61,447 nucleotides of DNA, from positions 1 to 61,447 of IMG/VR virus record IMGVR_UViG_3300027902_000010. One strand, written 5' to 3'. Every line of letters begins with the position of its first letter. Position 1 is the first letter of the stretch. A model generated the notes under the pieces. It saw only the letters and a list, made by a program, of their open reading frames with translations, was not told the origin of the DNA and ran no database searches. The DNA comes from a virus. Taxonomy: Duplodnaviria; Caudoviricetes. Positions 11,714 to 61,447 of this stretch are shown one piece after another. Both the position numbers and the translations under genes were made by a program.

Positions 11714-12529
11714 TTATCCGAATATCTTTTCACCGATCAGATTGACGGATACGTTGTTCGTCGCACCGCTCAAATCTTGCATGGTGATGTTGATCACAGA
11801 TCCACGCTGCACCCATCTCGGCGCAGCTAAGACGTTCGGGAAAGCGCCACTTCCAAGAAGGTTATTATCATGAACGCCCGTATTCATCCACTGACGGTCA
11901 CGACCCATATCCTGAACAGTGATGAGCACCGCGCCAGTAGCCTGTCCAGTAATCTTCTTGCACACAAAATTACTGTCCTTGTCAGTAGAAATTGATACTG
12001 ACGCCGTCTGGTTCGCCGGAATCTGGTAAACTCCTTCAGGCTGAGAACTCGAACTCCGAGGTAGTGGATATACATACGTCACCTTGGTCGTTCCGGGCTT
12101 TTTCCATGGAGCAATGCCCGGCCTCAATTTCATGCCATGGAAAGTGAGATATATCGTCGGCGCGATGACCGCGTGCGTATTTGCCAACTCAACCGAGAAA
12201 GTTGTAGCCCGACGAATGATATAGCCAGTTGGCCATACATACGGTCTGAAGTCCTGCGCTCCAGAGTTGTCCAGATTTAGAGAACGACCAGCCACCGTTC
12301 TCAGGGGAGTGGCGGACTTCATAAGATACCGCCCCATTGTATCATCTTTGAACTTAATGAGGACGTCCGCATTGTCATTGGTGGAGAAATAGCTCGTCTT
12401 CAAAAACTGGAAGTCGGCGTCGCTATCAATCCGTATTTCCTGAGTTGTATACTGCATTCCAGAACCAACTGCCAATGCCGAAAACGTCGTGCTGTAGCAA
12501 AAATACTCACCCCATACCACATCTTCCAT
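11714..12529 (-). CDS. Tandem two-domain beta protein, putative jelly-roll capsid component
   Basis: Two homologous halves (IDSDADF..GR.LM..PY.WP..F.G.KL vs TDKDSNF..RQWMN..P.L..L.G.KI). Confidence 0.55.
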   Translation of the reverse strand: MEDVVWGEYFCYSTTFSALAVGSGMQYTTQEIRIDSDADFQFLKTSYFSTNDNADVLIKFKDDTMGRYLMKSATPLRTVAGRSLNLDNSGAQDFRPYVWPTGYIIRRATTFSVELANTHAVIAPTIYLTFHGMKLRPGIAPWKKPGTTKVTYVYPLPRSSSSQPEGVYQIPANQTASVSISTDKDSNFVCKKITGQATGAVLITVQDMGRDRQWMNTGVHDNNLLGSGAFPNVLAAPRWVQRGSVINITMQDLSGATNNVSVNLIGEKIFG

Positions 12530-13105: not shown

Positions 13106-13783
13106 CTACGTCGGTCTCCTCATGAACGCATGGAGGACCAGGAGGATATCCACTTCCTGGTTGATCGTGACCGTGCCATCCCAGTTCATCGTCACTGCGA
13201 ACGATTCGAACGGGTTCAGCGTGATCGGAATGCCGAACTTATACATCGGGAACGGCGAAGCTCCCGACTGTCCAGTTGCGATCGACGTTGAAGCGTTGAT
13301 CGTGGTCGAGACCGCGAGATGTGGGTTCGACTCCGGAATAAGCGGCAACGGAAGTTGGAGGATCGGCTTGTCAATGATCTTGAAGTCAAGCCATCCGCCG
13401 TTTTTCAGGCGCATGATGTCATCACCGATCTTGCCAGTAGCCGCCGCGGTGTTGACGCTCTGCAACGGAATGAACACGATGCTGATACCAATAAACTGGT
13501 AGAGCTTCGTGGGAACGACACCTGAAGTATCCAGGTTCGTGTCACGCCTCGTCTTCACCTTGGAAGCCGTGGCACCGGCCGTGATCAGGTTTGCTGCCTG
13601 ACCAAGCTGCGTGCTGAAGAACGAGAGCTGCGAGGTTCCAGCCACCGGATACTCGACGCGGTCATACAGCGGCTGCGCCAAATCTTCCGGACGCTGAGGA
13701 TTCGTCACCGTATAGGTAGACGCCCGCATCGGATCCTGCTGTGGATATGCGACTTGTCTGGGCTGCACGTTATACTGAGGCAT
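13106..13783 (-). CDS. Putative major capsid protein (single jelly-roll-like)
   Basis: 225 aa, beta-rich (QPLYD..FF..DTNL..G), strong AAGGAG SD, C-ending codon bias, own terminator, follows an Arg-rich core-like gene; fold is inferred. Confidence 0.55.
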   Translation of the reverse strand: MPQYNVQPRQVAYPQQDPMRASTYTVTNPQRPEDLAQPLYDRVEYPVAGTSQLSFFSTQLGQAANLITAGATASKVKTRRDTNLDTSGVVPTKLYQFIGISIVFIPLQSVNTAAATGKIGDDIMRLKNGGWLDFKIIDKPILQLPLPLIPESNPHLAVSTTINASTSIATGQSGASPFPMYKFGIPITLNPFESFAVTMNWDGTVTINQEVDILLVLHAFMRRPT

Positions 13784-15380: not shown

Positions 15381-16799
15381 TCACATTTTCTTGAATTTGT
15401 TCTTGATGAACTCCGCCTGCTTACCACTATCTTTATAAGCCTGCACAAACTTATCATCAATGATCGTCTCTCGACCGATGTGAGGAATTATGATATCAGA
15501 GTCACACCATATCTGCCATCCCTTCAGCCGAGCCTTAATACCGAAGCTAACGTCTTCACCCACACCTTCGCGCTCTCCTTTTAGATTGTAGCCGGTAGAC
15601 GTATCCCCATATTTGAACCATGGATAGTCAAGTGACTCAAAGACCTCACGCTTGACCAGGAGAAAGTAGCCGCCAGTTGCATCTACTTCAACCATACCCA
15701 TATTCAATACGTCGTATGGGTGAAGTGACTTCTCATCATGGTCTGCAAGAAAAACACATGGAGCATGGGGCTCGCCGCGCTGCCACGCAATACCAGCACA
15801 TATATCAACATCATGCTCGAGTAACCGTAAAGCGGCATCTCCATCGAACATTTGATCATCATCAATGAAAAGTACATGAGTGAAATCGGATTTCAACAGT
15901 GCCTTCACCATCTCATTTCTGTCTTCTGGATGACCACGAGCCACATGAAAAAATGGCTTCTGAACAGGCGTACCTTCCCACAACTTGAGCAATGATATCA
16001 CGTTTTGATAATGTATGTATTCAGTTCTTGTCAACAATCCAACCATCATCTTAATCGGCTCAGACGTAGTTACTCGAAGCATATTATCAATAGCGTCTTT
16101 TCCTATTCTCTCCTCAAGAATAAGACGCTGCTTCTCCTGGTACTCATGGAAAGCATCCGCCGAACCGAGCGTATCGATAAATCCTTTTTCACCTTCATGC
16201 TCTATCTTCACATCACGAGCAATCTTGAGCGTGAAGCCGAGTTGCAAGATACGATAGCAAAGTTCCAATTCCTCCTTATCGCCGAGACCGTATACCGCTG
16301 GAAGAACTTCACCCCATTTCTCCTTCACAGCACGGATAACATTCATATCAGCCAAAAAGAAGAGACCAAGTAGATATTTTACATCACAGTTGATAAACAT
16401 CTTTAAGTTGTATGACTGTGGCCCCATTGCAAATGAAATCATCGGACCTACTGCACCAACTTCTGGATCCTTGAATCTCCTCATCATATTCTCAAGCCAC
16501 TGCTTGCAAAACACTACGTCATTGTGACACGTCAAAGCATACGGCGTATCGCACATCGCATACCCTTTTTCAACAGCCGCGATATATCCAATATTCTCAG
16601 ACGTGTACTGATACTTCAGCTCGACGCCATGATCACGACAATACCACACCACCCATGATTCAGTATTGTCATCGCTCCCATTGTCAAAAAAGAGTACTTT
16701 GTACTTCGATGGATCAGTATGTTCAATCAAACTTTCAAATGCTTTCTCTGTCAACTTCTGTTGATTCCTGGCTACCATTATTATGGTTAGCTGTTTCAT
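15381..16799 (-). CDS. Two-domain glycosyltransferase (GT2 + GT-A-like)
   Basis: DNGSDD and HNDV in domain 1; LFIDDD and GEDVSF in domain 2. Confidence 0.9.
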   Translation of the reverse strand: MKQLTIIMVARNQQKLTEKAFESLIEHTDPSKYKVLFFDNGSDDNTESWVVWYCRDHGVELKYQYTSENIGYIAAVEKGYAMCDTPYALTCHNDVVFCKQWLENMMRRFKDPEVGAVGPMISFAMGPQSYNLKMFINCDVKYLLGLFFLADMNVIRAVKEKWGEVLPAVYGLGDKEELELCYRILQLGFTLKIARDVKIEHEGEKGFIDTLGSADAFHEYQEKQRLILEERIGKDAIDNMLRVTTSEPIKMMVGLLTRTEYIHYQNVISLLKLWEGTPVQKPFFHVARGHPEDRNEMVKALLKSDFTHVLFIDDDQMFDGDAALRLLEHDVDICAGIAWQRGEPHAPCVFLADHDEKSLHPYDVLNMGMVEVDATGGYFLLVKREVFESLDYPWFKYGDTSTGYNLKGEREGVGEDVSFGIKARLKGWQIWCDSDIIIPHIGRETIIDDKFVQAYKDSGKQAEFIKNKFKKM

Positions 16800-17011: not shown

Positions 17012-17635
17012 CTATTTGATACAGATAATTTTCTCGTGGCCGATTCTTGTTCCTAATGAAACATTGATCGGTACTTCAATCTCCCGCAGCCGTAGACAGA
17101 AACTTACGTCTTCACCAAACTGAACGCCATTCATAGCGGTAACAAGATTGAATGGGAGATCGAGCGTATTCTCTCTCACTCGAGTATTCAACCACAGTCT
17201 ATCTCGGGCATCTGGATCACATAGGATCCTTATGATATTTCTTCGTATTCCTAAAAACGCTCCACCACAGATATCAACAATACGCTTAGGATTTATATTC
17301 CTTATTCCATTCGTCTTGTTATCATATTCATAGAGCGCATACTCTTTGTCACCAGTTTTACAGACACCCGTAACGACATCACCACCGTGGTTCATGAGAG
17401 CTTCTATATCTTTTCCATCAAATTCCATATCAGTGTCAATAAAGATAAGCCACTCCGCTTGAAGACGGAAAGCTTCGAGTATAGCAATGTTCCGGTTCTG
17501 TGAAATTGACACTCCTTGATAAAGCTTAGTTATTACCTGATGTCCACGTCGCTGCAAATAATGCTGAGCGTCTTCACGACACTCAATGAAATTTCTATTG
17601 ATAATATACCCGCAGGGAGACGCGATGAGTATCAT
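17012..17635 (-). CDS. GT-A-fold glycosyltransferase
   Basis: NRN...IFIDTD...GEDVSFC...GH; paralogous to domain 2 of 15381-16799. Confidence 0.85.
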   Translation of the reverse strand: MILIASPCGYIINRNFIECREDAQHYLQRRGHQVITKLYQGVSISQNRNIAILEAFRLQAEWLIFIDTDMEFDGKDIEALMNHGGDVVTGVCKTGDKEYALYEYDNKTNGIRNINPKRIVDICGGAFLGIRRNIIRILCDPDARDRLWLNTRVRENTLDLPFNLVTAMNGVQFGEDVSFCLRLREIEVPINVSLGTRIGHEKIICIK

Positions 17636-29029: not shown

Positions 29030-30829
29030 TTATATTTCTAAGGCAAGTACTCCTTGACAATCATTGACGCCACAGACGACGTGACCGCTTGTTTCGCCTA
29101 CTTCATCATCCCACTGCTGTCTGTTGTCGAAGTCGTGGCGAGCGCCACAGGTGTTACATACGGCAGTGACTAGTTTAATTGGCATAGAATTGCTTCTCAC
29201 ATTCTCAATATAGCGCTGAGCATAATCTTGGAGTGCGAGATAGGCCTGCTTGTTGGAATAGCGCGACCTATCAAAAATCATGACGTAGTTAACAAGACCC
29301 TTAGCATCCATTTGGCCGGCAAGTATCTGTTGTTTGATAATGCCAGGTCCGAAAAATGAATCAAGCATCTGTGTTACACGAGGGAAGGCAGCATAATCTC
29401 TGCTTGTTACTGATCGATAAAGTTCTTGCGTGAGCTGGGCGGTATTGTCTTGCTGTACTTGTGGTGCCACTTGGGGAGCCTCCTGAACAGGAATTTGTCC
29501 ATCTGATATTTCTTGCGCTATATCTTGCGCTGCCGCTTGAGCGTATGCTTCAGGCGGCAAGTCGGGCATTGATCTCGGATCATATCCTAAGCCGCCAGAG
29601 CCGTCATTTGCATTATACGCATCTGACGGAAAGCCTAGATGATCCATACCAGGAGCTGGGGCTGGCGCTTGAGGTCTTGGTGCTGGTGGAGCCTGTATTA
29701 TCTGACGAGGCGGTGGCGCTTGAACATAGATCGGTCGCTCAGCCTGCGCTTCCATAGGAGCACGAGCAGCCGCTTGCGCTTTGACCGCCGAAATATTCTC
29801 GATCGCTCCAATCAGCTTTCCGATATGAGGTCCAACGGCATCTATAAGCTTGTCCATAATACCAGGCCGCTCAGCTGGGCCGGCGCCTGTGAGTTCTTGC
29901 AGTATTCCTAAGACACCCTTCATCTTTGTGAGCGCTGTGAATGGATCGCTATCTGCCGGATCTTTTATTAGGCCAAGCGTTTTGAAGATAGTTATTTGGT
30001 CTGTTAGCGACTGGGGATTGTTGGAACCGGGTGCGGGAAGCATCCCCATATCTTTCATCGTTCCTGCCATTCCACGCACCAGCTCTAAAGGGTCCTTGTT
30101 GTCACCGTTCTTTCCCATAGCGCCCATCATCGCTGTGATGAGGCCGATCATCATTTGCGTCTGGTTATTGCTCTGGTTCATCATGAGCGCAATGAGCTGT
30201 TCACTTCCGCTCTTGCTATTACCGCCGGCGAGTGCTGCGAGTTCCATGCCTTTTTGCATGGATTCAACATTCTGCTGTATTACGTCTTTCGGCGCCTGCA
30301 CTGTTTCTCGCAGTATGTCCATCATTTCAGACGCTTGCGATGTGGCTGGAGTAGCCTCAGGCTCCTGCGCATCTATATCGAAGAAGACAGGCTTTCTCTT
30401 ATCTCCGCGAAGACCTCCGTCTCGGAAAAAGGTTACCATGTAGCGGCCGGAGCCCCACGAGACCACGCGATTCCTGCGCTTAATCTCCGCCAATGTTTCT
30501 TTTTGAACGAGCATGTTAATTTCAAATTCGAGATCAGCCCAGTGGCGGAACTTATCGATTCTGCGTTTGAACTGCCAGACGTTCGGCGACGTTTCTTTGC
30601 TCAGCTTGAGATACCAGTCAGTACCTTCCATTCCGAGCAGCATTTCATCTATTGATATCTCATCTGGACTTTTGCGCCTGAATGGATCACCGAGTGACAG
30701 CCGTTGTCTTCCGTCTGCGAGCGGGTCTATATCTTCGTCTAAATCGCGAGGATCAATGTCCTCTCCTTCTAAATCTTCTCGTACGGCGTCAAGTATCTTG
30801 CTTCTCTTTTTCGCTGTTTTTGTGGCCAT
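29030..30829 (-). CDS. Large Met/Pro/Gln-rich protein with C-terminal Zn finger
   Basis: 599 aa, first gene of the left arm; CNTC...CGVNDC. Confidence 0.7.
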   Translation of the reverse strand: MATKTAKKRSKILDAVREDLEGEDIDPRDLDEDIDPLADGRQRLSLGDPFRRKSPDEISIDEMLLGMEGTDWYLKLSKETSPNVWQFKRRIDKFRHWADLEFEINMLVQKETLAEIKRRNRVVSWGSGRYMVTFFRDGGLRGDKRKPVFFDIDAQEPEATPATSQASEMMDILRETVQAPKDVIQQNVESMQKGMELAALAGGNSKSGSEQLIALMMNQSNNQTQMMIGLITAMMGAMGKNGDNKDPLELVRGMAGTMKDMGMLPAPGSNNPQSLTDQITIFKTLGLIKDPADSDPFTALTKMKGVLGILQELTGAGPAERPGIMDKLIDAVGPHIGKLIGAIENISAVKAQAAARAPMEAQAERPIYVQAPPPRQIIQAPPAPRPQAPAPAPGMDHLGFPSDAYNANDGSGGLGYDPRSMPDLPPEAYAQAAAQDIAQEISDGQIPVQEAPQVAPQVQQDNTAQLTQELYRSVTSRDYAAFPRVTQMLDSFFGPGIIKQQILAGQMDAKGLVNYVMIFDRSRYSNKQAYLALQDYAQRYIENVRSNSMPIKLVTAVCNTCGARHDFDNRQQWDDEVGETSGHVVCGVNDCQGVLALEI

Positions 30830-31001: not shown

Positions 31002-31350
<349 letters not shown>

Positions 31351-32501: not shown

Positions 32502-33251
32502 ATGCTAGGAACAAAGATCGGAAAGCATCGTGGTCACATGGGTGATAAGCATAACAGAGCGCAGAAGGTCTACAATGCTTGGTCTGAGCTGAAGGCAAAG
32601 ATGGAAGGTATGATAATACGGGGACGTGGTGAGACCGAGCAGGCGCGATGCGCCTACTGTATGCTGTTGCTCATGGAGACAGGGATCCGCTCTGGGAACA
32701 GAGATAGCGCAGGTGGCTATGTCTGCGACCAGAAGCATCACGAGAAATATGGTAAAGAGATCCAGACGTTTGGGCTCACAACGCTGCGACCCGAGCATGT
32801 CGATCAATCCCGTGGCCAAGTCCGTATCTCGTTCACAGGCAAGAAACTAGTGGACCAGACATTGGTTACAAAGCATCCAATACTCGTCAAGTACTTCCAT
32901 GCTGTTCTCGAATCACATGATGATCCCACCGCATTCGGTGTCCATGATAAGCAGCTGCGCCGATTTACTCGCAAACATATTGGTCCAGGCTTCAAGCCAA
33001 AAGATATCCGCACCGCGTTGGTGAATAGGCTATTCATCAATATTGTCGAGAATGATAATATACTCAATGCCAAGCCAAGTACCAAGAAAGAAGCCAATGC
33101 GGTACTCAAGAAATTGATTGAAACCGTGGCTGAGCGCATTGGCCATACAAAGGGCGTATGCAAGGGGTCATATCTATCACCCACACTACTCGCCGTCGTA
33201 AAGGACCGCTTGCATGGTAATATTGTCCACAAGACCCGCAAGCGCAAATAG
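32502..33251 (+). CDS. DNA topoisomerase IB, catalytic domain only
   Basis: IRSGN, GLTTL..H, FTGKK, KDIRT and GHT..VC..SY give the R-K-R-H-Y pentad of poxvirus/bacterial TopIB. Confidence 0.88.
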   Translation: MLGTKIGKHRGHMGDKHNRAQKVYNAWSELKAKMEGMIIRGRGETEQARCAYCMLLLMETGIRSGNRDSAGGYVCDQKHHEKYGKEIQTFGLTTLRPEHVDQSRGQVRISFTGKKLVDQTLVTKHPILVKYFHAVLESHDDPTAFGVHDKQLRRFTRKHIGPGFKPKDIRTALVNRLFINIVENDNILNAKPSTKKEANAVLKKLIETVAERIGHTKGVCKGSYLSPTLLAVVKDRLHGNIVHKTRKRK

Positions 33252-34756: not shown

Positions 34757-34942
34757 ATGCTAACTCAACGACGGGTGTGGGAGTTGATGAGTACGCAATG
34801 TAAATTTCTTGGTGAAGATAAGACTTGTATCTACTATGGAACCATGCTTCTACTAGGTAGAGCTAGAGATTGTAAATGCGAGACATGTCCGATTCTTGGA
34901 TGTGTTGGTGTTGAAGTATGGGAGACAGGGAGTAGACCATGA
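34757..34942 (+). CDS. Small Cys-rich protein
   Basis: 61 aa, six Cys, ATGA overlap with ligase. Confidence 0.55.
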   Translation: MLTQRRVWELMSTQCKFLGEDKTCIYYGTMLLLGRARDCKCETCPILGCVGVEVWETGSRP

Positions 34943-35844
34943 CAATACGACGACCAATGAAGCCAGCGACGCTGTCAGATCTGGCCTTGGAAGATATTGA
35001 TGGTGATGATATTCCATTTCCAGTCTACGGTACTCCGAAATTTGATGGTATCCGCTGCTGCGTTCAAAGCGGCCAGGCGCTAACCTATAAGCTCAAGCGG
35101 ATACCGAATAAGTATGTGAGACGTAAACTTGAGATGCCAGGATTTGAAGGTCTTGATGGTGAGTTGATTGTAACTCACTCTATTCAAGATTACTTCAATA
35201 ATACCCAGTCTGGTGTGATGTCACATGATGGAGAGCCAGACTTCAAGTTCTGCGTCTTTGATGTGATGCCGAAGTCAGGCAAGCCAGATCCAGGATATCT
35301 ACGTCGAGTCGATGACATGTTCAAGACTCAGGCTTCTTTTCTTCAATATGTGGAGCCGGTGAAGATCAGGAACATGCGAGAGCTGCTGTCATTCGAGCGC
35401 GATTGCCTCAAGAAAAATTACGAAGGATTTGTTCTGCGCACTGGTAATAGCCCATACAAATATGGGCGTTCTACGCTTAGCCAGTTCTGGATGGTGAAGT
35501 ATAAGCGATTCCATGATAGTGAAGCTCGTGTTACGGGCTTTAATGAGTTGATGGCTAACAAGAATGAAGCCAAGCGGAATAAGTATACCAATCTTATCGA
35601 GCGTAGTTCACACAAGAAGAACATGGTGCCAATGAATATGCTGGGCTCGCTCAATGCGGTTGATCTAAAGACAGGCGTAGAATTCCGGATATCTGGATTC
35701 ACATTGAAGCAGCGCAAGCAGATATGGCGACAGCGCAAGAAGAAGATGGGCGCGATATTCACGTATCGCTATCAGCTGCATGGTATGAAAGACAAACCTC
35801 GGTTTGATGTCTTCAAAGGATGGAGGCCAGAAAATGAGTCTTGA
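34939..35844 (+). CDS. lig: ATP-dependent DNA ligase (minimal type)
   Basis: PKFDGIR, LDGEL, FCVFD, EGFVLR and VKYK motifs plus OB domain. Confidence 0.93.
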   Translation: MTIRRPMKPATLSDLALEDIDGDDIPFPVYGTPKFDGIRCCVQSGQALTYKLKRIPNKYVRRKLEMPGFEGLDGELIVTHSIQDYFNNTQSGVMSHDGEPDFKFCVFDVMPKSGKPDPGYLRRVDDMFKTQASFLQYVEPVKIRNMRELLSFERDCLKKNYEGFVLRTGNSPYKYGRSTLSQFWMVKYKRFHDSEARVTGFNELMANKNEAKRNKYTNLIERSSHKKNMVPMNMLGSLNAVDLKTGVEFRISGFTLKQRKQIWRQRKKKMGAIFTYRYQLHGMKDKPRFDVFKGWRPENES

Positions 35845-36112
35845 CCCAGATTTGATAAAGCGACATACGATCATGCTCTTTGAGTATGACGGACGTCAGT
35901 ATCGCGTGATCAGCGAGATGGTATCTGAGCAAGGTGATATCAAGTTATTCGTTGAGCAGAAGATTGTAGATAATGTTGATTCAAAAGAGAAGCAGGTATG
36001 GGTAGAAGTATCACCAATGTTGACTGACAAGAATCACATGACGATAGAGCAGTGTACTCAAGTGCTCAAGCAGATATCTGATTATGTGAATGTCAACTTC
36101 TTTATCGTGTAG
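35834..36112 (+). CDS. Hypothetical protein
   Basis: GGAGG SD then ATG at 35834. Confidence 0.55.
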   Translation: MSLDPDLIKRHTIMLFEYDGRQYRVISEMVSEQGDIKLFVEQKIVDNVDSKEKQVWVEVSPMLTDKNHMTIEQCTQVLKQISDYVNVNFFIV

Positions 36113-36129
36113 GAATACCGTGAGGTCTT

Positions 36130-36378
36130 ATGGACATACGAAAAGTATCGTTGGTAGTTACTGCTGTGGTATTATTGATAGGCGTCGTCGCAACGAGCCA
36201 TCGAGTTAGAAGTCTTGATAAGCAAATGTCAATAGTTACAGACTTGCTGAGAGAACAGCAAGGTATCAACAAGAGTCTGATAGAAGCGCTCAAGTTGCGC
36301 GAAGATCCACAATATCTGAAGGAAGTTACCGATTGCAATACGCAATCAATAAAACCCAAAGCGAAGAGGAGGAAGTAG
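36130..36378 (+). CDS. Membrane-anchored coiled-coil protein
   Basis: N-terminal TM. Confidence 0.55.
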   Translation: MDIRKVSLVVTAVVLLIGVVATSHRVRSLDKQMSIVTDLLREQQGINKSLIEALKLREDPQYLKEVTDCNTQSIKPKAKRRK

Positions 36379-36379
36379 A

Positions 36380-36757
36380 ATGGAAAAGACAGTGATGATG
36401 CAGCACATGGGGAGGATCTATGTTGGTAATCCGCTATATGAGAAGGCCACCATGGAAAGAGAAGAAGGGCCGGAAGAGACCATTGATATATTGGTCGAGA
36501 TGGATGAAGCGTATGAGTTCATCCCTATTGCGACGCTCATGCCGGATGAACGGACAGGTAAGCTTGGAACGATGTCGACGTTCTCAACGATTAAAGTCGG
36601 CAAGGTCGTGTCAATACCAGATGAAGCCATCATCGCGGAGTTAGCGAATGACTCGCCGTATTATCGTCAGTACGTCTTGCTGACAACCGGCGTGACAGTG
36701 CATAATCCCAGCGAGATGCCACCTACGCCCATAGGATCGCACAAGCGGCCACATTAG
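36380..36757 (+). CDS. Hypothetical protein
   Basis: 125-aa ORF, GAGGAGG SD. Confidence 0.6.
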   Translation: MEKTVMMQHMGRIYVGNPLYEKATMEREEGPEETIDILVEMDEAYEFIPIATLMPDERTGKLGTMSTFSTIKVGKVVSIPDEAIIAELANDSPYYRQYVLLTTGVTVHNPSEMPPTPIGSHKRPH

Positions 36758-36771
36758 GAATAGGAGGAGAG

Positions 36772-36984
36772 ATGAAATTTTTTGCAATGCTATATGAGAA
36801 GTTGACAAAGCCAAAAGATACAGGTTGGCGTATCTGTGTCCATGGTGAGAAGTGCAACGAACCTGACTGTACTCATAAAGTTCCACATGAGCGCAATACC
36901 GGTTGTGCTAATGTTTGTTGGCACTCGGGTGAAGTATGTAGGATGACTGATGAGCCAATCAAGGGATGTGGTGGTAGGCCATGA
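36772..36984 (+). CDS. Small Cys/His-rich protein
   Basis: C.H..PH motif. Confidence 0.55.
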   Translation: MKFFAMLYEKLTKPKDTGWRICVHGEKCNEPDCTHKVPHERNTGCANVCWHSGEVCRMTDEPIKGCGGRP

Positions 36985-37220
36985 CACCTAACGAACAACT
37001 TGCAGAATGGGTAAAAGGGAATTCAATACATGATACAGAACGAAATGAGTGCTGTCCGGACTTCTCATGCTGTAGGCCCGAACTGTTAGCCAATCAGGTT
37101 GAGCGGCTTACCTTTGTTGAGAACCCAGAACTTCGTGAAAAGATGCTCTTTGTGTTTCTTAGCCGCGGTCTTGAGAAGCTCGGATATGAAATTTCATCAC
37201 CACTTAATTTGAGAGAATAA
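36981..37220 (+). CDS. Small protein with ECCPDFSCC motif
   Basis: 79-aa ORF, ATGA overlap. Confidence 0.6.
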   Translation: MTPNEQLAEWVKGNSIHDTERNECCPDFSCCRPELLANQVERLTFVENPELREKMLFVFLSRGLEKLGYEISSPLNLRE

Positions 37221-37240
37221 TCAACGTCGGGTCTCATGCG

Positions 37241-57271: not shown

Positions 57272-57991
57272 ATGAGTCTCAAAGAGAAACTGAAAAAAGC
57301 GCAAGAGATATGGGATGAAGCCGAGACAGCAGAAGTCGGTGGAAAGAAACTCAAGGATGGCGAATACAAGTGCAAGGTTGAATCCATGTCCGTGGAGACG
57401 TCAAAGAGCAACAAGCGACTCCAGGTCAAAACCGTGTTCGAGGTTGTGAAGCCATCCAAGTTCGAAGGCCGGACGGTATGGCGGTTTGACGGCTTGACCG
57501 AGCAGGGAATGCCGTACTTCAAAGCCATGGCGCAGACGCTCGGTCTCGAAGTTCCGAGCAAGCTTTCAAAGCTGCCGGATGCTCTTGAAAGTTTTGTTGA
57601 AGATTTCGACGGCATCGTGGAGATCACAGTTGCTACCAAAGATGAGTTCACAAACGTCTATGTGAACGGCCTCGTCGAAGAAGGTGATGAGGATGAAGAT
57701 GAAGACGAGGACGAAGACAAGCCTACGAAAAAGAAAAAGTCCAAGAAGGACGAAGACGAAGACGAAGACGAAGACGAAGACGAAGACGAAGACGAAGACG
57801 AGGACGAAGAACCCAAGTCAAAGAAAAAGAAAAAGTCAAAGAAGGATGAAGACGAGGACGAAGACGAGGACGAAGACGAGGACGAAGACGAGGAAGAAGA
57901 TGAAGAGCCCAAGTCAAAGTCCAAGAAAAAGAAGCGGGCCGGCAAAGTCGACAAAGACGAGCCGCCACTTAAGAAGAAGAAAAAGAAGTAG
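57272..57991 (+). CDS. DUF669-like ssDNA-binding protein with alternating acidic/basic tail
   Basis: DGEY.C.V...SK OB-like N-terminus; (DE)n and K-rich blocks; AAGGAG SD. Confidence 0.75.
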   Translation: MSLKEKLKKAQEIWDEAETAEVGGKKLKDGEYKCKVESMSVETSKSNKRLQVKTVFEVVKPSKFEGRTVWRFDGLTEQGMPYFKAMAQTLGLEVPSKLSKLPDALESFVEDFDGIVEITVATKDEFTNVYVNGLVEEGDEDEDEDEDEDKPTKKKKSKKDEDEDEDEDEDEDEDEDEDEEPKSKKKKKSKKDEDEDEDEDEDEDEDEEEDEEPKSKSKKKKRAGKVDKDEPPLKKKKKK

Positions 57992-58000
57992 CTCCTGATC

Positions 58001-58098
58001 TCGGGACCAGGCTGAGAGCCCCGATAGTTAAGAGGACGATGTGAGGGTCGGTTTCGACCGAGGGATCATGTAACCGAGTCGTCCTCTCTCGCTTTTTT
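58001..58098 (+). terminator. Structured intergenic element / terminator-attenuator
   Basis: AGAGGACGA(58031-58039)/TCGTCCTCT(58079-58087) with inner hairpin; T6 at 58093-58098. Confidence 0.5.
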
Positions 58099-58117
58099 AT
58101 TGAAGACTGGAGAACCT

Positions 58118-60016
58118 ATGAGGAGAGTCCCATTTTCGGAGATGCTGCATGAGCAGCACTATAATAAACATATCATAGTAAAATGCTTCGTGTCCGGAAA
58201 GTCTATCTCTCCTTACGCCGTGCCAAAAACCATAAAAATAAAATGTTTAGGCGAGAGAGATAAGAAATGTAAAGGTGAATCCGAATGCGACTATTGCAAT
58301 CATAAGGTAAGTTTTGAAGGCAAGTATGTCGAGATGCTCAAGTTTATTGGAGTACCTGAAAATAACTTTAGGAATATTATCAAGAATTCATTTAAGCTTC
58401 CATGCTCATTCATGTTTGAAATTATAGATGTTCAAAACATTGAGCGGATATTTGTAACTGCGCCGACTGGCAAAGAGAGAATTCGAAACGTGGGAAACTA
58501 CGTCTGCTATAATTTTGGGTTAGGAATAGATGTGAATGTTATTTATGAGCTAGAGGGGTATTCTACTACCGACCCTAACACTCAGACAGGTACTTGTATA
58601 TTCATTGAATCAAGAAAGTTGAAATCAGACATTGAAACATTCTCACTTAAGAAGGCCAGGAGTGGCCTCGAAGAATTCCAGATCGAAGATATTACAGAAG
58701 ATAAGATGTATCTGCATCTTGAGCAGCTCTATGAATACTATGCCCGAAACGTCACAAAGATTTATGGAAGATTCCCGTTGCACCTGGCTGTTGACATGGC
58801 TTTTCGTAGCCCCATCTCATTCAGTATAAAAACTGAGAGAGTCCATAAAGGATGGACTGATATTATAATAATAGGTGATACGAGATGTGGGAAGGGGTAT
58901 GTTTCCGAGAAACTTGTAGAGTACTTCAACGTAGGTGAAACGATATCAGGTGACAATACAAGTTATGCTGGGCTAGTAGGCGGTATAGATCAGTATGACA
59001 ATCATCGCGTTATATCGTGGGGCAAGATTCCAATTAATGATCAGGGGTTGGTAGTGATAGATGAGGCTGGTGAAATAAAGCCAGAAGATTGGGGAAGACT
59101 ATCTCGAGTGAGATCAGAAGGAATCGCGGAGATTGTAAAAATTCAAAAGCAAATAACCAATGCTAGAACTCGTCTTATATTTCTTGCGAATCCACCACTG
59201 AAAACCATATCATCATATAGCTATGGAATTCAGGCGCTGCTTGATGTGGTGAAAGCGCCAGAAGATATTGCGCGATTTGATTATGCTCTCGTGGTGTCTC
59301 ACGATGAGGTAAGTATCGATGAAATAAACCAGCAGAGAACCGAAGTGAAGTCAATGTTCAGCTCGAAGCTTGAGCAAGATTTGATTATGTGGGTTTGGAG
59401 TAGAAAACATAATCAGATTTATTTTACAGACAAAGCGGTTGATACAATTTATAAGCGGGCGGTAGAGTTGGCCAAGAAATATTCATTTTCTATACCGCTT
59501 ATCCAAGGTGAGAATGTTAGAGTAAAGCTTGCGAAGTTGGCAGTATGTTTTGCAGGAAGAGTCTTTAGTAATAAACATGATGGCCAAATACTCCTGGTGA
59601 ATCGAGTTCATGTTGACTGCGCTTTCGCATTCTTCAATGTGATCTATCGGTTGGAAGCAAACGGCTACCTAGATTATTCTGTAATTCAAAGAGATATAGA
59701 TAGAGGAGCGAGCCCAGAAGACCTGAAACGTATTGACAAGTACTTCAAGTCATTCACCAATAGTCGACTTCGTCTTATGAAGTCTTTGTTCAGCAGCACT
59801 ACAATAAATATCCGTGACATCGTTGAGCAAGTGAATATATCCGAGGAGATTGCTCGTGAGTGTTTATCTAAGTTGAATGAAATGAAGCTTATAGCCAAGA
59901 TGCCTGCCACAAATTATTATAGAAAGAACCCTGGCTTCAACAAATGGTTGAAGGCGAAGATTATTCCACATGAGCTCGCTGAGAAAGGGAATTCCTATGG
60001 CGAAGTACACGATTAA
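58118..60016 (+). CDS. MCM-like AAA+ replicative helicase (no primase domain)
   Basis: GDTRCGKG, SYAGLVGG, G.IP.ND.G.V.IDE, LANP and RFD; N-terminal Zn/OB-like region. Confidence 0.85.
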   Translation: MRRVPFSEMLHEQHYNKHIIVKCFVSGKSISPYAVPKTIKIKCLGERDKKCKGESECDYCNHKVSFEGKYVEMLKFIGVPENNFRNIIKNSFKLPCSFMFEIIDVQNIERIFVTAPTGKERIRNVGNYVCYNFGLGIDVNVIYELEGYSTTDPNTQTGTCIFIESRKLKSDIETFSLKKARSGLEEFQIEDITEDKMYLHLEQLYEYYARNVTKIYGRFPLHLAVDMAFRSPISFSIKTERVHKGWTDIIIIGDTRCGKGYVSEKLVEYFNVGETISGDNTSYAGLVGGIDQYDNHRVISWGKIPINDQGLVVIDEAGEIKPEDWGRLSRVRSEGIAEIVKIQKQITNARTRLIFLANPPLKTISSYSYGIQALLDVVKAPEDIARFDYALVVSHDEVSIDEINQQRTEVKSMFSSKLEQDLIMWVWSRKHNQIYFTDKAVDTIYKRAVELAKKYSFSIPLIQGENVRVKLAKLAVCFAGRVFSNKHDGQILLVNRVHVDCAFAFFNVIYRLEANGYLDYSVIQRDIDRGASPEDLKRIDKYFKSFTNSRLRLMKSLFSSTTINIRDIVEQVNISEEIARECLSKLNEMKLIAKMPATNYYRKNPGFNKWLKAKIIPHELAEKGNSYGEVHD

Positions 60017-60251
60017 GGAGTTAAGAAAAATGCAAACATTCTCAAAAAGTCATGCTGAGTTCAAAGGTCTCATACAACATACGGTGTGGGTAAGAGACAA
60101 TCTTGAAGAAAGGGAGTTCCTTAAGAAGAGTCAAGATCAGGTACTTATAAATAGTAAGAGGACCGCGATCATTGTGAAGAACGGCGGGTTGCTTTCATTG
60201 TATGTTGATGACGTTTCCTATTGTCGAAAAGTGGCTAAGTCGCTGATTTAA
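59997..60251 (+). CDS. Small hypothetical protein
   Basis: MAKYTIKELRK... Confidence 0.5.
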   Translation: MAKYTIKELRKMQTFSKSHAEFKGLIQHTVWVRDNLEEREFLKKSQDQVLINSKRTAIIVKNGGLLSLYVDDVSYCRKVAKSLI

Positions 60252-60370: not shown

Positions 60371-60652
60371 ATGGAGGCGACAATGAACAAGAAGACGAAC
60401 AAGAAGGCGACAGAATCCAAGAAGCAGGCCACACCGCCCGTGGCGACAGCGTCATTGCCAAAGAGTTTGGCGATATCCATTGACGGCCAATCCGTTCCAG
60501 GAATCTGGAAGATCAACAAGGAAACGGGCGAAGAAGGTTTCAAGACAGGTTCAAAAGGCTGGAGCGCAATGGGCAAGATATTTATCGCCGGCGTCCGCTG
60601 CCAAGTTTCATGTAACATCATCATCATCGGATCCAAGCCCGAGGAGGCGTAA
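60371..60652 (+). CDS. Small basic protein
   Basis: F.TGS.GW...GK...G...QV..N...IGSK pattern; likely start at 60383. Confidence 0.6.
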   Translation: MEATMNKKTNKKATESKKQATPPVATASLPKSLAISIDGQSVPGIWKINKETGEEGFKTGSKGWSAMGKIFIAGVRCQVSCNIIIIGSKPEEA

Positions 60653-60654
60653 CA

Positions 60655-61326
60655 ATGTTAAGAGGCGATGACTATGAGAAGATTGTCCGGAAGCTCCGGC
60701 CCATAAACTTGCTCATGACCAACGTCACGCCCGAGGAGCATGAAAGGTTAGAAGCAGGCGAGTTCACGTCAGATGCAGAAGAGAAAGCCTACCAGCAAAG
60801 AAATTTCGCGGAGGCGAATCAATCCCAAAACCGGTCTTCAAAAAAGACCACAACCAAAAAGGAGAATACCATGTCTAAGAAAGAAGCCGTAGAAGAAAAG
60901 AAATTATCCAAGGCCGAGAGGCGGGCAGCTCGTCGTGCAGCAGAGAAAGCCGAATCATCCAAGAAGTCAAAGAAGTCCGAGAAGTCCGAGAAGTCCGAGA
61001 AGTCTGAGAAGAAAGCAAAGAAGGCGAGCAAGAAAGACGAGACGTCAACCCGCGAATCCAAGACGGGCAAGTATACAAGTTTCCGTCATCTCGTCGAAGC
61101 CGTCTTCTACAAGAATCGCGAGGCGACTGTGGATGATGTTATTGCCATCGCCAAGAAAGAATATCCGGGCTGCTCATTCCTCACAGGCGGGCGCACTAAC
61201 AAGCGTTTCGGTTGGTATAAGTCTCACATCGTCAATCACGGCGAGTTCACTACCGTTGAGGCGCCGAAGTGGGCAAAGGGCGGAGCCAAGATCAAGAAGA
61301 ACAAGAAGTCAACCAAAGACGAATAA
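60655..61326 (+). CDS. Lys-rich histone-H1-like DNA-binding protein
   Basis: SEK repeats and K/A-rich tracts; second in-frame start with GGAG SD at 60871. Confidence 0.55.
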   Translation: MLRGDDYEKIVRKLRPINLLMTNVTPEEHERLEAGEFTSDAEEKAYQQRNFAEANQSQNRSSKKTTTKKENTMSKKEAVEEKKLSKAERRAARRAAEKAESSKKSKKSEKSEKSEKSEKKAKKASKKDETSTRESKTGKYTSFRHLVEAVFYKNREATVDDVIAIAKKEYPGCSFLTGGRTNKRFGWYKSHIVNHGEFTTVEAPKWAKGGAKIKKNKKSTKDE

Positions 61327-61348: not shown

Positions 61349-61447
61349 GCCCGCATGGTATCACGCCATGCGGGTTTCTTTTTGTCCATTCTAGCAAAGA
61401 ACCTCTCCTCTATTATCCATTGATGGACATATTCTCTTTGATCCCAT
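61349..61447. repeat. Right terminal inverted repeat (99 bp)
   Basis: Exact reverse complement of 1-99. Confidence 0.97.
61350..61383 (+). terminator. Intrinsic terminator of the right arm, inside the TIR
   Basis: CCCGCATGG-TATCACG-CCATGCGGG-TTTCTTTTT. Confidence 0.87.

Follow-up and report, generated by a model that had tools for sequence, protein, structure and literature searches.

The IMG/VR record IMGVR_UViG_3300027902_000010, analysed here as the entire record of 61,447 bp and called the window below, appears to be a near-complete linear genome belonging to a large uncultured virus clade whose MCM-like helicase carries no fused primase. Comparison of this clade with its primase-bearing relatives gives a pattern that appears best explained if the chromosome ends changed when the clade arose, at which point an ancestral state of direct terminal repeats and a primase-helicase would have given way to hairpin-type telomeres. 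That hairpin-type palindromic telomeres exist in the clade is in our judgement likely. The whole model, in which hairpin telomeres would be combined with primase-free, continuous strand displacement and with resolution by a resolvase and a ligase as in poxviruses, we hold to have about an even chance of being correct.

Right-arm replication genes and a helicase lacking its primase part

Genes were identified with Pfam and PHROGs. An earlier note on this DNA, made from the sequence alone, had read the right arm as encoding a ligase, PolA, a RuvC-like protein, a SNF2 protein, an exonuclease-Sak4-SSB module and an MCM-like helicase, and all of them were recovered where it had placed them:

34939 to 35844, + strand: ATP-dependent DNA ligase (DNA_ligase_A_M 31.9 bits, OB_2 39.8 bits)
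50782 to 52827, + strand: family A DNA polymerase, PolA (DNA_pol_A E 4.3e-66; 3'-5' exonuclease E 5.1e-14)
53045 to 53584, + strand: putative RuvC-like resolvase (phrog_159 E 2.6e-9; phrog_827 E 8.4e-6)
53781 to 55292, + strand: SNF2-family ATPase (Pfam; family in 47 clade records)
55485 to 56444, + strand: PD-(D/E)XK exonuclease (Pfam; syntenic with the RecB-like exonuclease of Microbacterium phage Sparcetus)
56441 to 57205, + strand: AAA_24 ATPase, Sak4-type and RecA-like (E 8e-41)
57236 to 57991, + strand: SSB-like protein (phrog_15004 E 8.3e-9; 73 clade records)
58100 to 60016, + strand: MCM-like AAA+ helicase, 638 aa (PF00493 at 34.6 bits against a cut-off of 23.3, residues 218-400)

The window helicase covers only positions 397-1012 of the 1028 positions of phrog_18685, with the N-terminal primase part unmatched, which bears out the earlier description of a helicase without a fused primase. 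Its homologues in Sparcetus (957 aa) and Bacillus phage BSP7 (968 aa) carry a CHC2 zinc ribbon and a Toprim domain at the N-terminus, and the part missing from the window protein amounts to ~330 aa in cultured and metagenomic homologues. Three motifs were invariant in 26 helicase sequences, namely G264 K265 G266, D321 E322 and R392 F393 D394, which we take to be the Walker A lysine, the Walker B acidic pair and an RFD-type arginine finger.

A database search returned 818 helicase homologues at E <= 1e-10, and the best 120 of these 818 matches were all unfused proteins of 542-641 aa with 44-89% identity, some of them on contigs of 60-66 kb. We then surveyed 160 related loci from IMG/VR and metagenomes, where complete open reading frames (ORFs) fell into two length classes, one of 604-651 aa with at least 42% identity to the window and one of 918-1143 aa with at most 39%. 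In a FastTree phylogeny of 94 rows, from which five near-duplicates and every incomplete ORF were excluded and in which branches are long, the 36 unfused helicases formed one branch (SH-like support 100) nested among the fused rows. Because the unfused helicases form a single supported branch nested among fused ones, the tree points to one loss of the helicase-fused primase. In three outgroup loci (L046, L077 and L079) the helicase ORF is no longer than 425-431 aa and corresponds to query residues ~201-628; these may be split, interrupted or frameshifted forms.

To assess the absence of primases and of known end machinery, the window and closely related records were searched in all six frames with hidden Markov models (HMMs). 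No match was obtained for Toprim_2 (0/6 clade records), for the AEP families Prim-Pol (0/4) and DNA_primase_S (0/5) or for DNAG_N (0/5), nor for the protein-primed family B polymerase (pPolB) model DNA_pol_B_2 (PF03175; 0/5 at E <= 0.1), the ResT/TelK protelomerase (PF16684; 0/5) or the Phage_integrase tyrosine recombinase (PF00589; 0/5). The earlier note had recognised no DnaG, AEP, pPolB or protelomerase, and these searches, negative in the 4-6 clade records covered, agree with it. Likewise, tblastn of the Sparcetus and BSP7 primase N-termini against the window gave nothing better than E 0.3. We also considered whether the 599-aa ORF at 29030-30829 (- strand) might be a hidden primase; no acidic catalytic motif was seen in it, and it is a clade-only ORFan with 9 matches, a Met/Gln-rich middle and a C-terminal four-Cys ribbon, and its Atlas model is poor (pLDDT 0.50).

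Two of the recovered proteins would act at the chromosome ends in our model. The RuvC-like protein, a putative Holliday-junction resolvase, has D10, E74 and D166 invariant across 27 sequences, corresponding to RuvC-type carboxylates, and is a proposed resolvase of telomere junctions; the ligase is the proposed sealer of the resolved hairpins. The 3'-5' exonuclease domain of PolA looks intact, with its acidic motifs kept, and the 5' nuclease domain is absent.

Gene content of the clade and its primase-bearing relatives

Three small genes lie between the helicase and the right end of the window:

59970 to 60251, + strand: p93a, small conserved protein right after the helicase (45 clade records)
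60371 to 60652, + strand: p93b, small basic protein with a lysine-rich tail and a ~55-aa beta domain; clade-specific
60655 to 61326, + strand: p223, basic protein with a ~70-aa conserved core between K/R/S-rich tails; last gene before the terminal repeat

Pfam and PHROGs gave no match to p93a, and its profile found nothing below E 0.3 among Protein Data Bank (PDB) sequences. Among PDB sequences the p93b profile found CFA/I fimbrial subunit B, with E 1.8e-10 against an engineered triple fusion and 0.03-0.05 against single chains, a match that is probably compositional; the protein is a candidate tip-binding or single-stranded DNA (ssDNA)-binding factor. Nothing below E 0.3 was found for the p223 profile among PDB sequences; p223 is a candidate telomere-binding or DNA-condensing protein that is specific to the clade.

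Phyletic distributions were compared in 26 IMG/VR records, six from the clade (G000-G005) and 20 from the primase-bearing outgroup (G006-G025):

Toprim_2: clade 0/6; outgroup 20/20, each within a 799-1145-aa frame
ATP-dependent ligase: clade 5/6; outgroup 0/20
RuvC-like profile: clade 6/6 (E <= 1e-54); outgroup 4/20 (nearest outgroup, E 1e-8 to 1e-21)
p93b (60371-60652): clade 5/6; outgroup 0/20
p223 (60655-61326): clade 5/6; outgroup 0/20
PolA: clade 6/6; outgroup 5/20
Terminase_6N: clade 0/6; outgroup 12/20

The one clade record in which ligase, p93b and p223 are all missing is only a fragment, 15.7 kb long. In four of the five ligase-bearing clade records, the ligase gene sits beside p223 and at most 2 kb from the end of its contig. 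Genome-end classes differed as well, with the direct-terminal-repeat (DTR) class of IMG/VR assigned to 9/20 outgroup records and to no clade record, and both long clade records assigned to the inverted-terminal-repeat (ITR) class. The exonuclease-Sak4-SSB module is shared with Sparcetus and BSP7 and is ancestral, as is PolA, given its presence in 5/20 primase-bearing relatives. On gene content, then, loss of the primase coincides with gain of the ligase and retention of the RuvC-like gene.

We considered whether PolA might itself prime de novo together with a small ssDNA-binding partner, in the manner of CCPol-MP of SCCmec and other mobile elements of Bacillota, and thereby make the fused DnaG-type primase redundant. 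CCPol-MP is an A-family polymerase whose primase activity comes with a small OB-fold partner, and a helicase is encoded together with it (PMC7581432, PMC10061031); the window has both PolA and clade-specific small basic proteins such as p93b. However, the published Pol-SSB primases arose when N-terminal domains of the polymerase were partly truncated (PMC10061031), whereas the window PolA keeps its exonuclease; PolA is also ancestral, being found in primase-bearing relatives, and p93b is not adjacent to it. We therefore regard de novo priming by PolA as very improbable.

Chromosome ends in relatives of the window

The second long clade record, G001 (70,516 bp), belongs to the ITR class and has no nucleotide similarity to the window, yet is syntenic with it. 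One of its ends carries the helicase, p93a, p93b, p223 and the ligase, and 0.6 kb in from the other end lies a homologue of the last-but-one left-arm gene of the window, an SLT lytic transglycosylase. Over its first 71 nt the G001 repeat is exact; from there to about 155 nt its two copies differ by mismatches and small indels, and because it is imperfect beyond 71 nt it is not an artefact of k-mer size or of a collapsed repeat. From their sequence, the ITR ends of the window and of G001 thus appear to be real genome ends. CheckV gives a completeness of 65% for the window record and 43% for G001, and both values are probably underestimates, since both genomes are ITR-bounded with homologous genes at both ends and belong to a lineage without references. 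Most longer clade contigs end 1-7 kb away from the helicase gene, one exception being L146 (>10 kb); the longest clade contigs reach 73 kb.

Five contigs from separate assemblies, which represent four clade lineages including the sister group of the window, continue through the terminus into their own reverse complement. The longest case, L006 (identical to L096), is a perfect palindrome of 8,736 nt with the helicase, p93a, p93b and a p223 homologue in each arm. Read-through past the centre was 240 nt in L136, 63 nt in L009, 12 nt in L008 and 23 nt in L169, an NCBI contig from a metagenome-assembled genome (MAG) that is close to G001. The centre ...CTAA|TTAG is common to L008/L009, L136 and L169, and G001, L028 and L129 stop at most 2 nt from it. 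The short tandem repeats next to the termini differ from lineage to lineage. No terminal palindrome was found in outgroup loci when the 160 loci were scanned, many locus ends not being contig ends. The earlier note had suggested looking for head-to-head junction reads as a check, and these palindromic termini in five contigs of the same clade are junctions of that kind.

The same contigs could in principle derive from a circular or head-to-tail-packaged genome that contains one long internal perfect palindrome, comparable to an uncut telRL site, at which assemblers break and so produce apparent ITR ends and read-through. The assembly graph is the same for all of these alternatives, the exact ITR of the window, at 99 nt, is as long as a common assembler k-mer, and the 63 nt of L009 equals (127-1)/2, the point at which a k=127 walk through a palindrome would stop. 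However, perfect palindromy has been kept although the tip sequences diverged completely, and replication through a hairpin would regenerate palindromy in each cycle, whereas by other means it would be difficult to preserve. Protelomerase, integrase and Terminase_6N were not found in the clade records searched, the DTR class comprises none of the clade records compared with 9/20 of the outgroup, and in L006 each side of the centre consists of 4.3 kb of one and the same arm. An internal palindrome in a circular or head-to-tail genome is thus improbable, and we favour hairpin-type tips.

Several further features were seen at the tips of relatives. A mini family X polymerase of 156 aa lies at the tip beside the ligase in G001 (L085, 613-1083) and in G002 (C1, 249-428), with matches to the DNA polymerase beta thumb (E 4.4e-19) and palm (E 4.3e-5); it is present in 2/5 clade records, the window not being one of them, and may work with the ligase at the telomere by filling gaps. 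The G001 tip (L011, 18443-18471) also has an outward-facing, TG-extended sigma-70-like site, TGTACA-17-TATAAT, which ends ~12 nt from the palindrome centre. An outward sigma-70 primer promoter at every tip was rejected as a general feature, as a simple scan was positive in G001 only and found none at the L136 and L006 tips. L169 is the sole clade member found in a species-genome collection, as a contig of 9.9 kb assigned to the bin of a Candidatus Gracilibacteria MAG.

Layout and ends of the window

The window carries an exact ITR of 99 nt (100% identity) at its two ends, and its genes form two divergent arms, with minus-strand genes running from ~30.8 kb to the left end and plus-strand genes from ~31.4 kb to the right end:

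1 to 99, no strand: left ITR, exact reverse complement of 61349-61447
61349 to 61447, no strand: right ITR, exact reverse complement of 1-99
31057 to 31297, no strand: central AT-rich imperfect palindrome, nested around a (TA) run, between the divergent arms

The inner ~30 nt of the left ITR form an outward-facing intrinsic terminator of the left arm (- strand 101-71, 13 pairs), and the right ITR includes a corresponding outward-facing terminator of the right arm (+ strand 61349-61375, 11 pairs and a T-run). Divergent, TG-extended promoter-like sites flank the central palindrome at 31016-30988 (-) and 31318-31347 (+), and the sign of the GC skew flips at the window centre (~30-32 kb), a change that is confounded with the switch in coding strand. 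The central palindrome is a candidate internal origin, early promoter/control region, or both.

The tip of the window itself is probably absent from the assembly. The 99 nt of its exact ITR may be no more than a k-mer-sized stub, truncated from a longer, collapsed terminal repeat of which the inner border was kept. An exact search with the first 40 nt of the ITR gave no match in viral contigs, the window's own record being excluded from that search. An estimate by analogy that the window misses about 25 nt of tip was withdrawn, because the alignments behind it were no better than shuffles.

Coding is conventional, with all three stop codons in use and a coding fraction of 93.5% under table 11; a recoded genetic code, an idea suggested by the relative in the Gracilibacteria bin, was rejected on these grounds. 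No tRNA genes were found in the window, and about half of its ORFs are ORFans.

A proposed model for replication through hairpin ends

We propose that a single priming event would start synthesis, either at the central AT-rich palindrome, where a transcript or R-loop would serve, or at a nick near a tip, and that PolA, the MCM-like helicase moving 3'-5' and SSB would then copy the template by strand displacement. With a template continuous through the hairpins, one leading strand would copy both strands and repeated lagging-strand priming would become dispensable, which would explain the loss of the helicase-fused zinc-ribbon/Toprim primase. The product would bear inverted (head-to-head and tail-to-tail) palindromic junctions that extrude as cruciforms, the RuvC-like resolvase would cut these cruciforms, and the ATP-dependent ligase would seal the nicks into new hairpins. 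The ligase fits this model because cut junctions need nick sealing and a ligase is exactly what the clade gained. The small basic proteins p93b and p223, encoded beside the tip, would probably bind or protect the ends. We infer the priming route, the resolution by resolvase plus ligase and the roles of the small proteins alike.

A number of observations weigh against this model. The palindromic contigs prove continuity across the centre and not which flank follows, because hairpin tips, inverted dimer junctions and circular or head-to-tail molecules in which one long palindrome is internal all yield an identical de Bruijn graph. At the window's own tip, a scan for terminal palindromes found none, and local alignments of its last 160 nt with the tips of five relatives scored within the range of shuffles. 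The RuvC-like profile matched solved RuvC structures only at E 0.7-1, and the RuvC-like gene also occurs in 4/20 primase-bearing relatives and hence is not specific to the clade. A tip promoter was present at one of the three tips scanned, and the initiation route is purely inferred. Finally, a primase, nickase, terminal protein or resolvase of a new type might lie among the ORFans. For the window, a hairpin would follow from phylogenetic bracketing by its relatives and not from its own tip. The earlier suggestion of hairpin self-priming or recombination-dependent replication with resolvase processing gains partial support from the palindromic tips of relatives and from the loss of the primase together with the gain of a ligase and retention of the RuvC-like gene, support that reaches the window, whose tip is unassembled, only through its relatives.

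Hairpin telomeres could also be combined with conventional bidirectional, strand-coupled replication from a central origin with primers made by the host DnaG, as in Borrelia or N15-like replicons, and with the ends resolved by the RuvC-like protein or by an unrecognised resolvase. The AT-rich palindrome between the divergent arms and the change in skew sign at the centre would suit such an origin, the palindromic tips of relatives would be accounted for equally, and no viral primase was detected in the searches described above. For SIRV2, moreover, strand-coupled replication of a circular dimer has been reported in addition to strand displacement (PMC5062984). However, the primase-bearing ancestors could have drawn on host primase just as well, which leaves a loss coinciding with new ends and a ligase unexplained. 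No known DnaG-recruiting module was seen, and the skew switch is confounded with coding strand. We regard host priming as unlikely.

Other genes of the right arm

Two further right-arm genes bear on the comparison with poxviruses:

32502 to 33251, + strand: type IB topoisomerase (TopIB) of the poxvirus/bacterial type (Topoisom_I E 5.2e-11, 42.8 bits against a cut-off of 23.7)
44608 to 45786, + strand: P-loop (dNMP-kinase-like) domain fused to a UDG-superfamily domain (UDG E 2e-17; phrog_761)

TopIB is present in 1/5 clade records and is therefore lineage-specific and not clade-wide. We considered it as the telomere resolvase and rejected it, given this distribution and the absence, by eye, of any CCCTT-type site in the ITR. 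The P-loop/UDG fusion protein has a homologue in G001. The toolkit likened to that of poxviruses in the earlier note (TopIB, RuvC-like protein, ligase and UDG) is hence upheld in part: the RuvC-like protein and the ligase are clade-wide or nearly so, while TopIB, in a single record, does not belong to the core.

Genes for modification and nucleotide metabolism are dense at 37645-44535 and 48342-50750. These regions encode three radical-SAM proteins (two with SPASM), a split transketolase-like pair and a DUF4326 protein, as well as a dUTPase_2, a C5 cytosine methyltransferase and a partial ThyA-like protein; G001 additionally encodes a dCMP deaminase and a MazG-like protein. This gene set suggests modified DNA bases. 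In the SSB-like protein, the C-terminal tail (57677-57958) is repetitive and Asp/Glu-rich, broken by Lys-rich blocks (repeat family D1).

Left arm and virion type

The left-arm genes span 743-30829 on the - strand, and no canonical Walker A motif was found in their ORFs. Neither terminase, portal, HK97 capsid nor tape measure was recognised with PHROGs on the 20 largest left-arm ORFs or with Pfam on 10 of them; the six-frame search for such genes used Terminase_6N only. Two ORFs gave models with jelly-roll folds:

11714 to 12529, - strand: 271-aa ORF with 53 homologues; AlphaFold model with pLDDT 93.2, two jelly-roll-like domains
13106 to 13783, - strand: 225-aa ORF from a family of 268 representatives; model with pLDDT 87.9, one jelly roll

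The top structural matches of both models were archaeal and bacterial vertical jelly-roll capsid proteins. Across the two models, Z scores were 8.5 (root-mean-square deviation [rmsd] 3.4 over 113 residues) and 7.3 against HHIV-2 (6h82_b), 6.7 and 8.1 (rmsd 4.2 over 135 residues) against SPV1 (6oj0_T), 6.2 and 6.5 against HCIV-1, and 6.4 and 6.0 against P23-77 VP17. Unrelated beta-sandwiches reach Z 6-7.5 in the same match lists, such that the capsid matches lie near background, and Foldseek on the 271-aa model gave only low TM scores of 0.2-0.3. On these models the virus may be non-tailed, with jelly-roll capsid proteins. The premise of a tailed phage is accordingly in doubt, as no terminase, portal or HK97 capsid was found in these searches and the left arm has two jelly-roll proteins.

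Also on this arm, a 472-aa protein (15381-16799, -) has two GT2 glycosyltransferase domains, and its neighbour at 17012-17635 (-) shares phrog_1574 with it; GT2 glycosyltransferase genes are unusual for a virion-side arm.

HHIV-2, HCIV-1 and SPV1 have linear, ITR-ended genomes, some with terminal proteins, and the structural matches of the two virion-arm proteins to their capsid proteins raise the possibility that a terminal protein, encoded by a tip-proximal ORFan, primes the ends. Such priming might resemble that of phi29/PRD1, though with an unorthodox polymerase, or take the form of Streptomyces-type patching after internal initiation, and the ITR-ended genomes and the conserved, clade-specific small proteins at the tip would agree with either. 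However, the pPolB model matched in 0/5 clade records, protein priming is not known for family A polymerases, and five contigs read through the terminus, whereas protein caps would give no continuity. Terminal-protein priming is accordingly the slimmest of the possibilities that we weighed, and hairpin-type ends remain our preferred reading.

An extended version of that reading would hold that this widespread clade reached a poxvirus-like chromosome biology independently, with hairpin-closed, primase-free, RuvC/ligase-resolved genomes of 55-73 kb, and combines it with non-tailed, vertical jelly-roll capsids and terminase-free packaging of unit-length genomes. We put this forward tentatively and with more doubt than confidence.

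Comparison with known systems and significance

Poxvirus telomeres have hairpin ends and inverted concatemer junctions, and are handled with the RuvC-like A22 resolvase, a ligase, TopIB and UDG. The clade resembles them in its ITRs with palindromic junctions, seen in relatives of the window, in the combination of a RuvC-like protein with an ATP-dependent ligase and in lacking a recognised protelomerase; the window adds TopIB and a UDG-domain protein. It differs in that the clade polymerase belongs to family A and not B, and in that an MCM-like helicase without primase takes the place of the D5 primase-helicase, which joins an AEP primase to a superfamily 3 (SF3) helicase. The window is moreover only 61 kb long, with a bacterial code and intrinsic terminators, and TopIB is confined to one of five clade records. 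Mismatched flip-flop loops of the poxvirus kind are invisible in assemblies.

Palindromic telomere junctions (in clade relatives), ITR-like ends and a probable internal origin are shared with N15/phiKO2 and with Borrelia/Agrobacterium. In contrast with the N15 type, ResT/TelK and tyrosine recombinase models each matched in 0/5 clade records, and no RepA primase-helicase, cos/terminase or plasmid-maintenance genes were recognised in the window. The palindrome arms of the clade measure 70-240 nt or more, compared with tens of nt in N15. Judged by these domain searches, the clade system appears to be neither of the N15 type, as the resolvase domain was not found, nor of the phi29/PRD1 type, as pPolB was not found.

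Among archaeal viruses, the rudivirus SIRV2 has linear double-stranded DNA with hairpin ends, strand displacement from the termini and a Holliday-junction resolving enzyme (PMC5062984). The clade would share with it hairpin-type ends, a resolvase for junctions and replication by strand displacement that needs no primase of viral origin. SIRV2 depends on a Rep nickase and host polymerases, whereas the clade virus brings its own PolA, MCM-like helicase, SSB and ligase.

The closest cultured counterparts of the window helicase, Sparcetus gp51 and BSP7 BSP7_045, combine zinc ribbon, Toprim and MCM-like AAA+ domains and are 29-32% identical to it over 90-93% of its length. The gene order of exonuclease, RecA-like/Sak4 protein, (SSB) and helicase is also as in the window, whose helicase, in contrast, begins where their primase part ends. 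The CCPol-MP-Cch2 system of SCCmec similarly couples a family A polymerase to a helicase without a canonical primase (PMC7581432). It differs from the window, whose PolA keeps its exonuclease, which has no identified MP-like gene adjacent to PolA and which is a 61-kb virus.

A 2026 review describes only two types of bacterial and phage telomere, protelomerase-made hairpins and protein-capped terminal inverted repeats (PMC13685816). No published description of phages such as these was found in the literature searched, most subscription journals being outside its scope.

Some components may be useful for work with closed-ended linear DNA: PolA for strand displacement, the MCM-like helicase with no primase attached, and the resolvase and ligase as a pair for use on defined palindromes. 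Clade members are frequent in metagenomes, and standard completeness estimates misjudge its genomes; the record names of many metagenome relatives point to 0.1-um filtered groundwater. Set against its sister lineages, in which the primase is fused and the terminal repeats are direct, the clade provides a natural before/after comparison in which the link between end structure and priming can be tested. If the model is correct, these viruses would represent a third and new solution to the telomere problem among prokaryotic viruses, with hairpin ends maintained without a protelomerase by a junction resolvase and a ligase, and with no primase.

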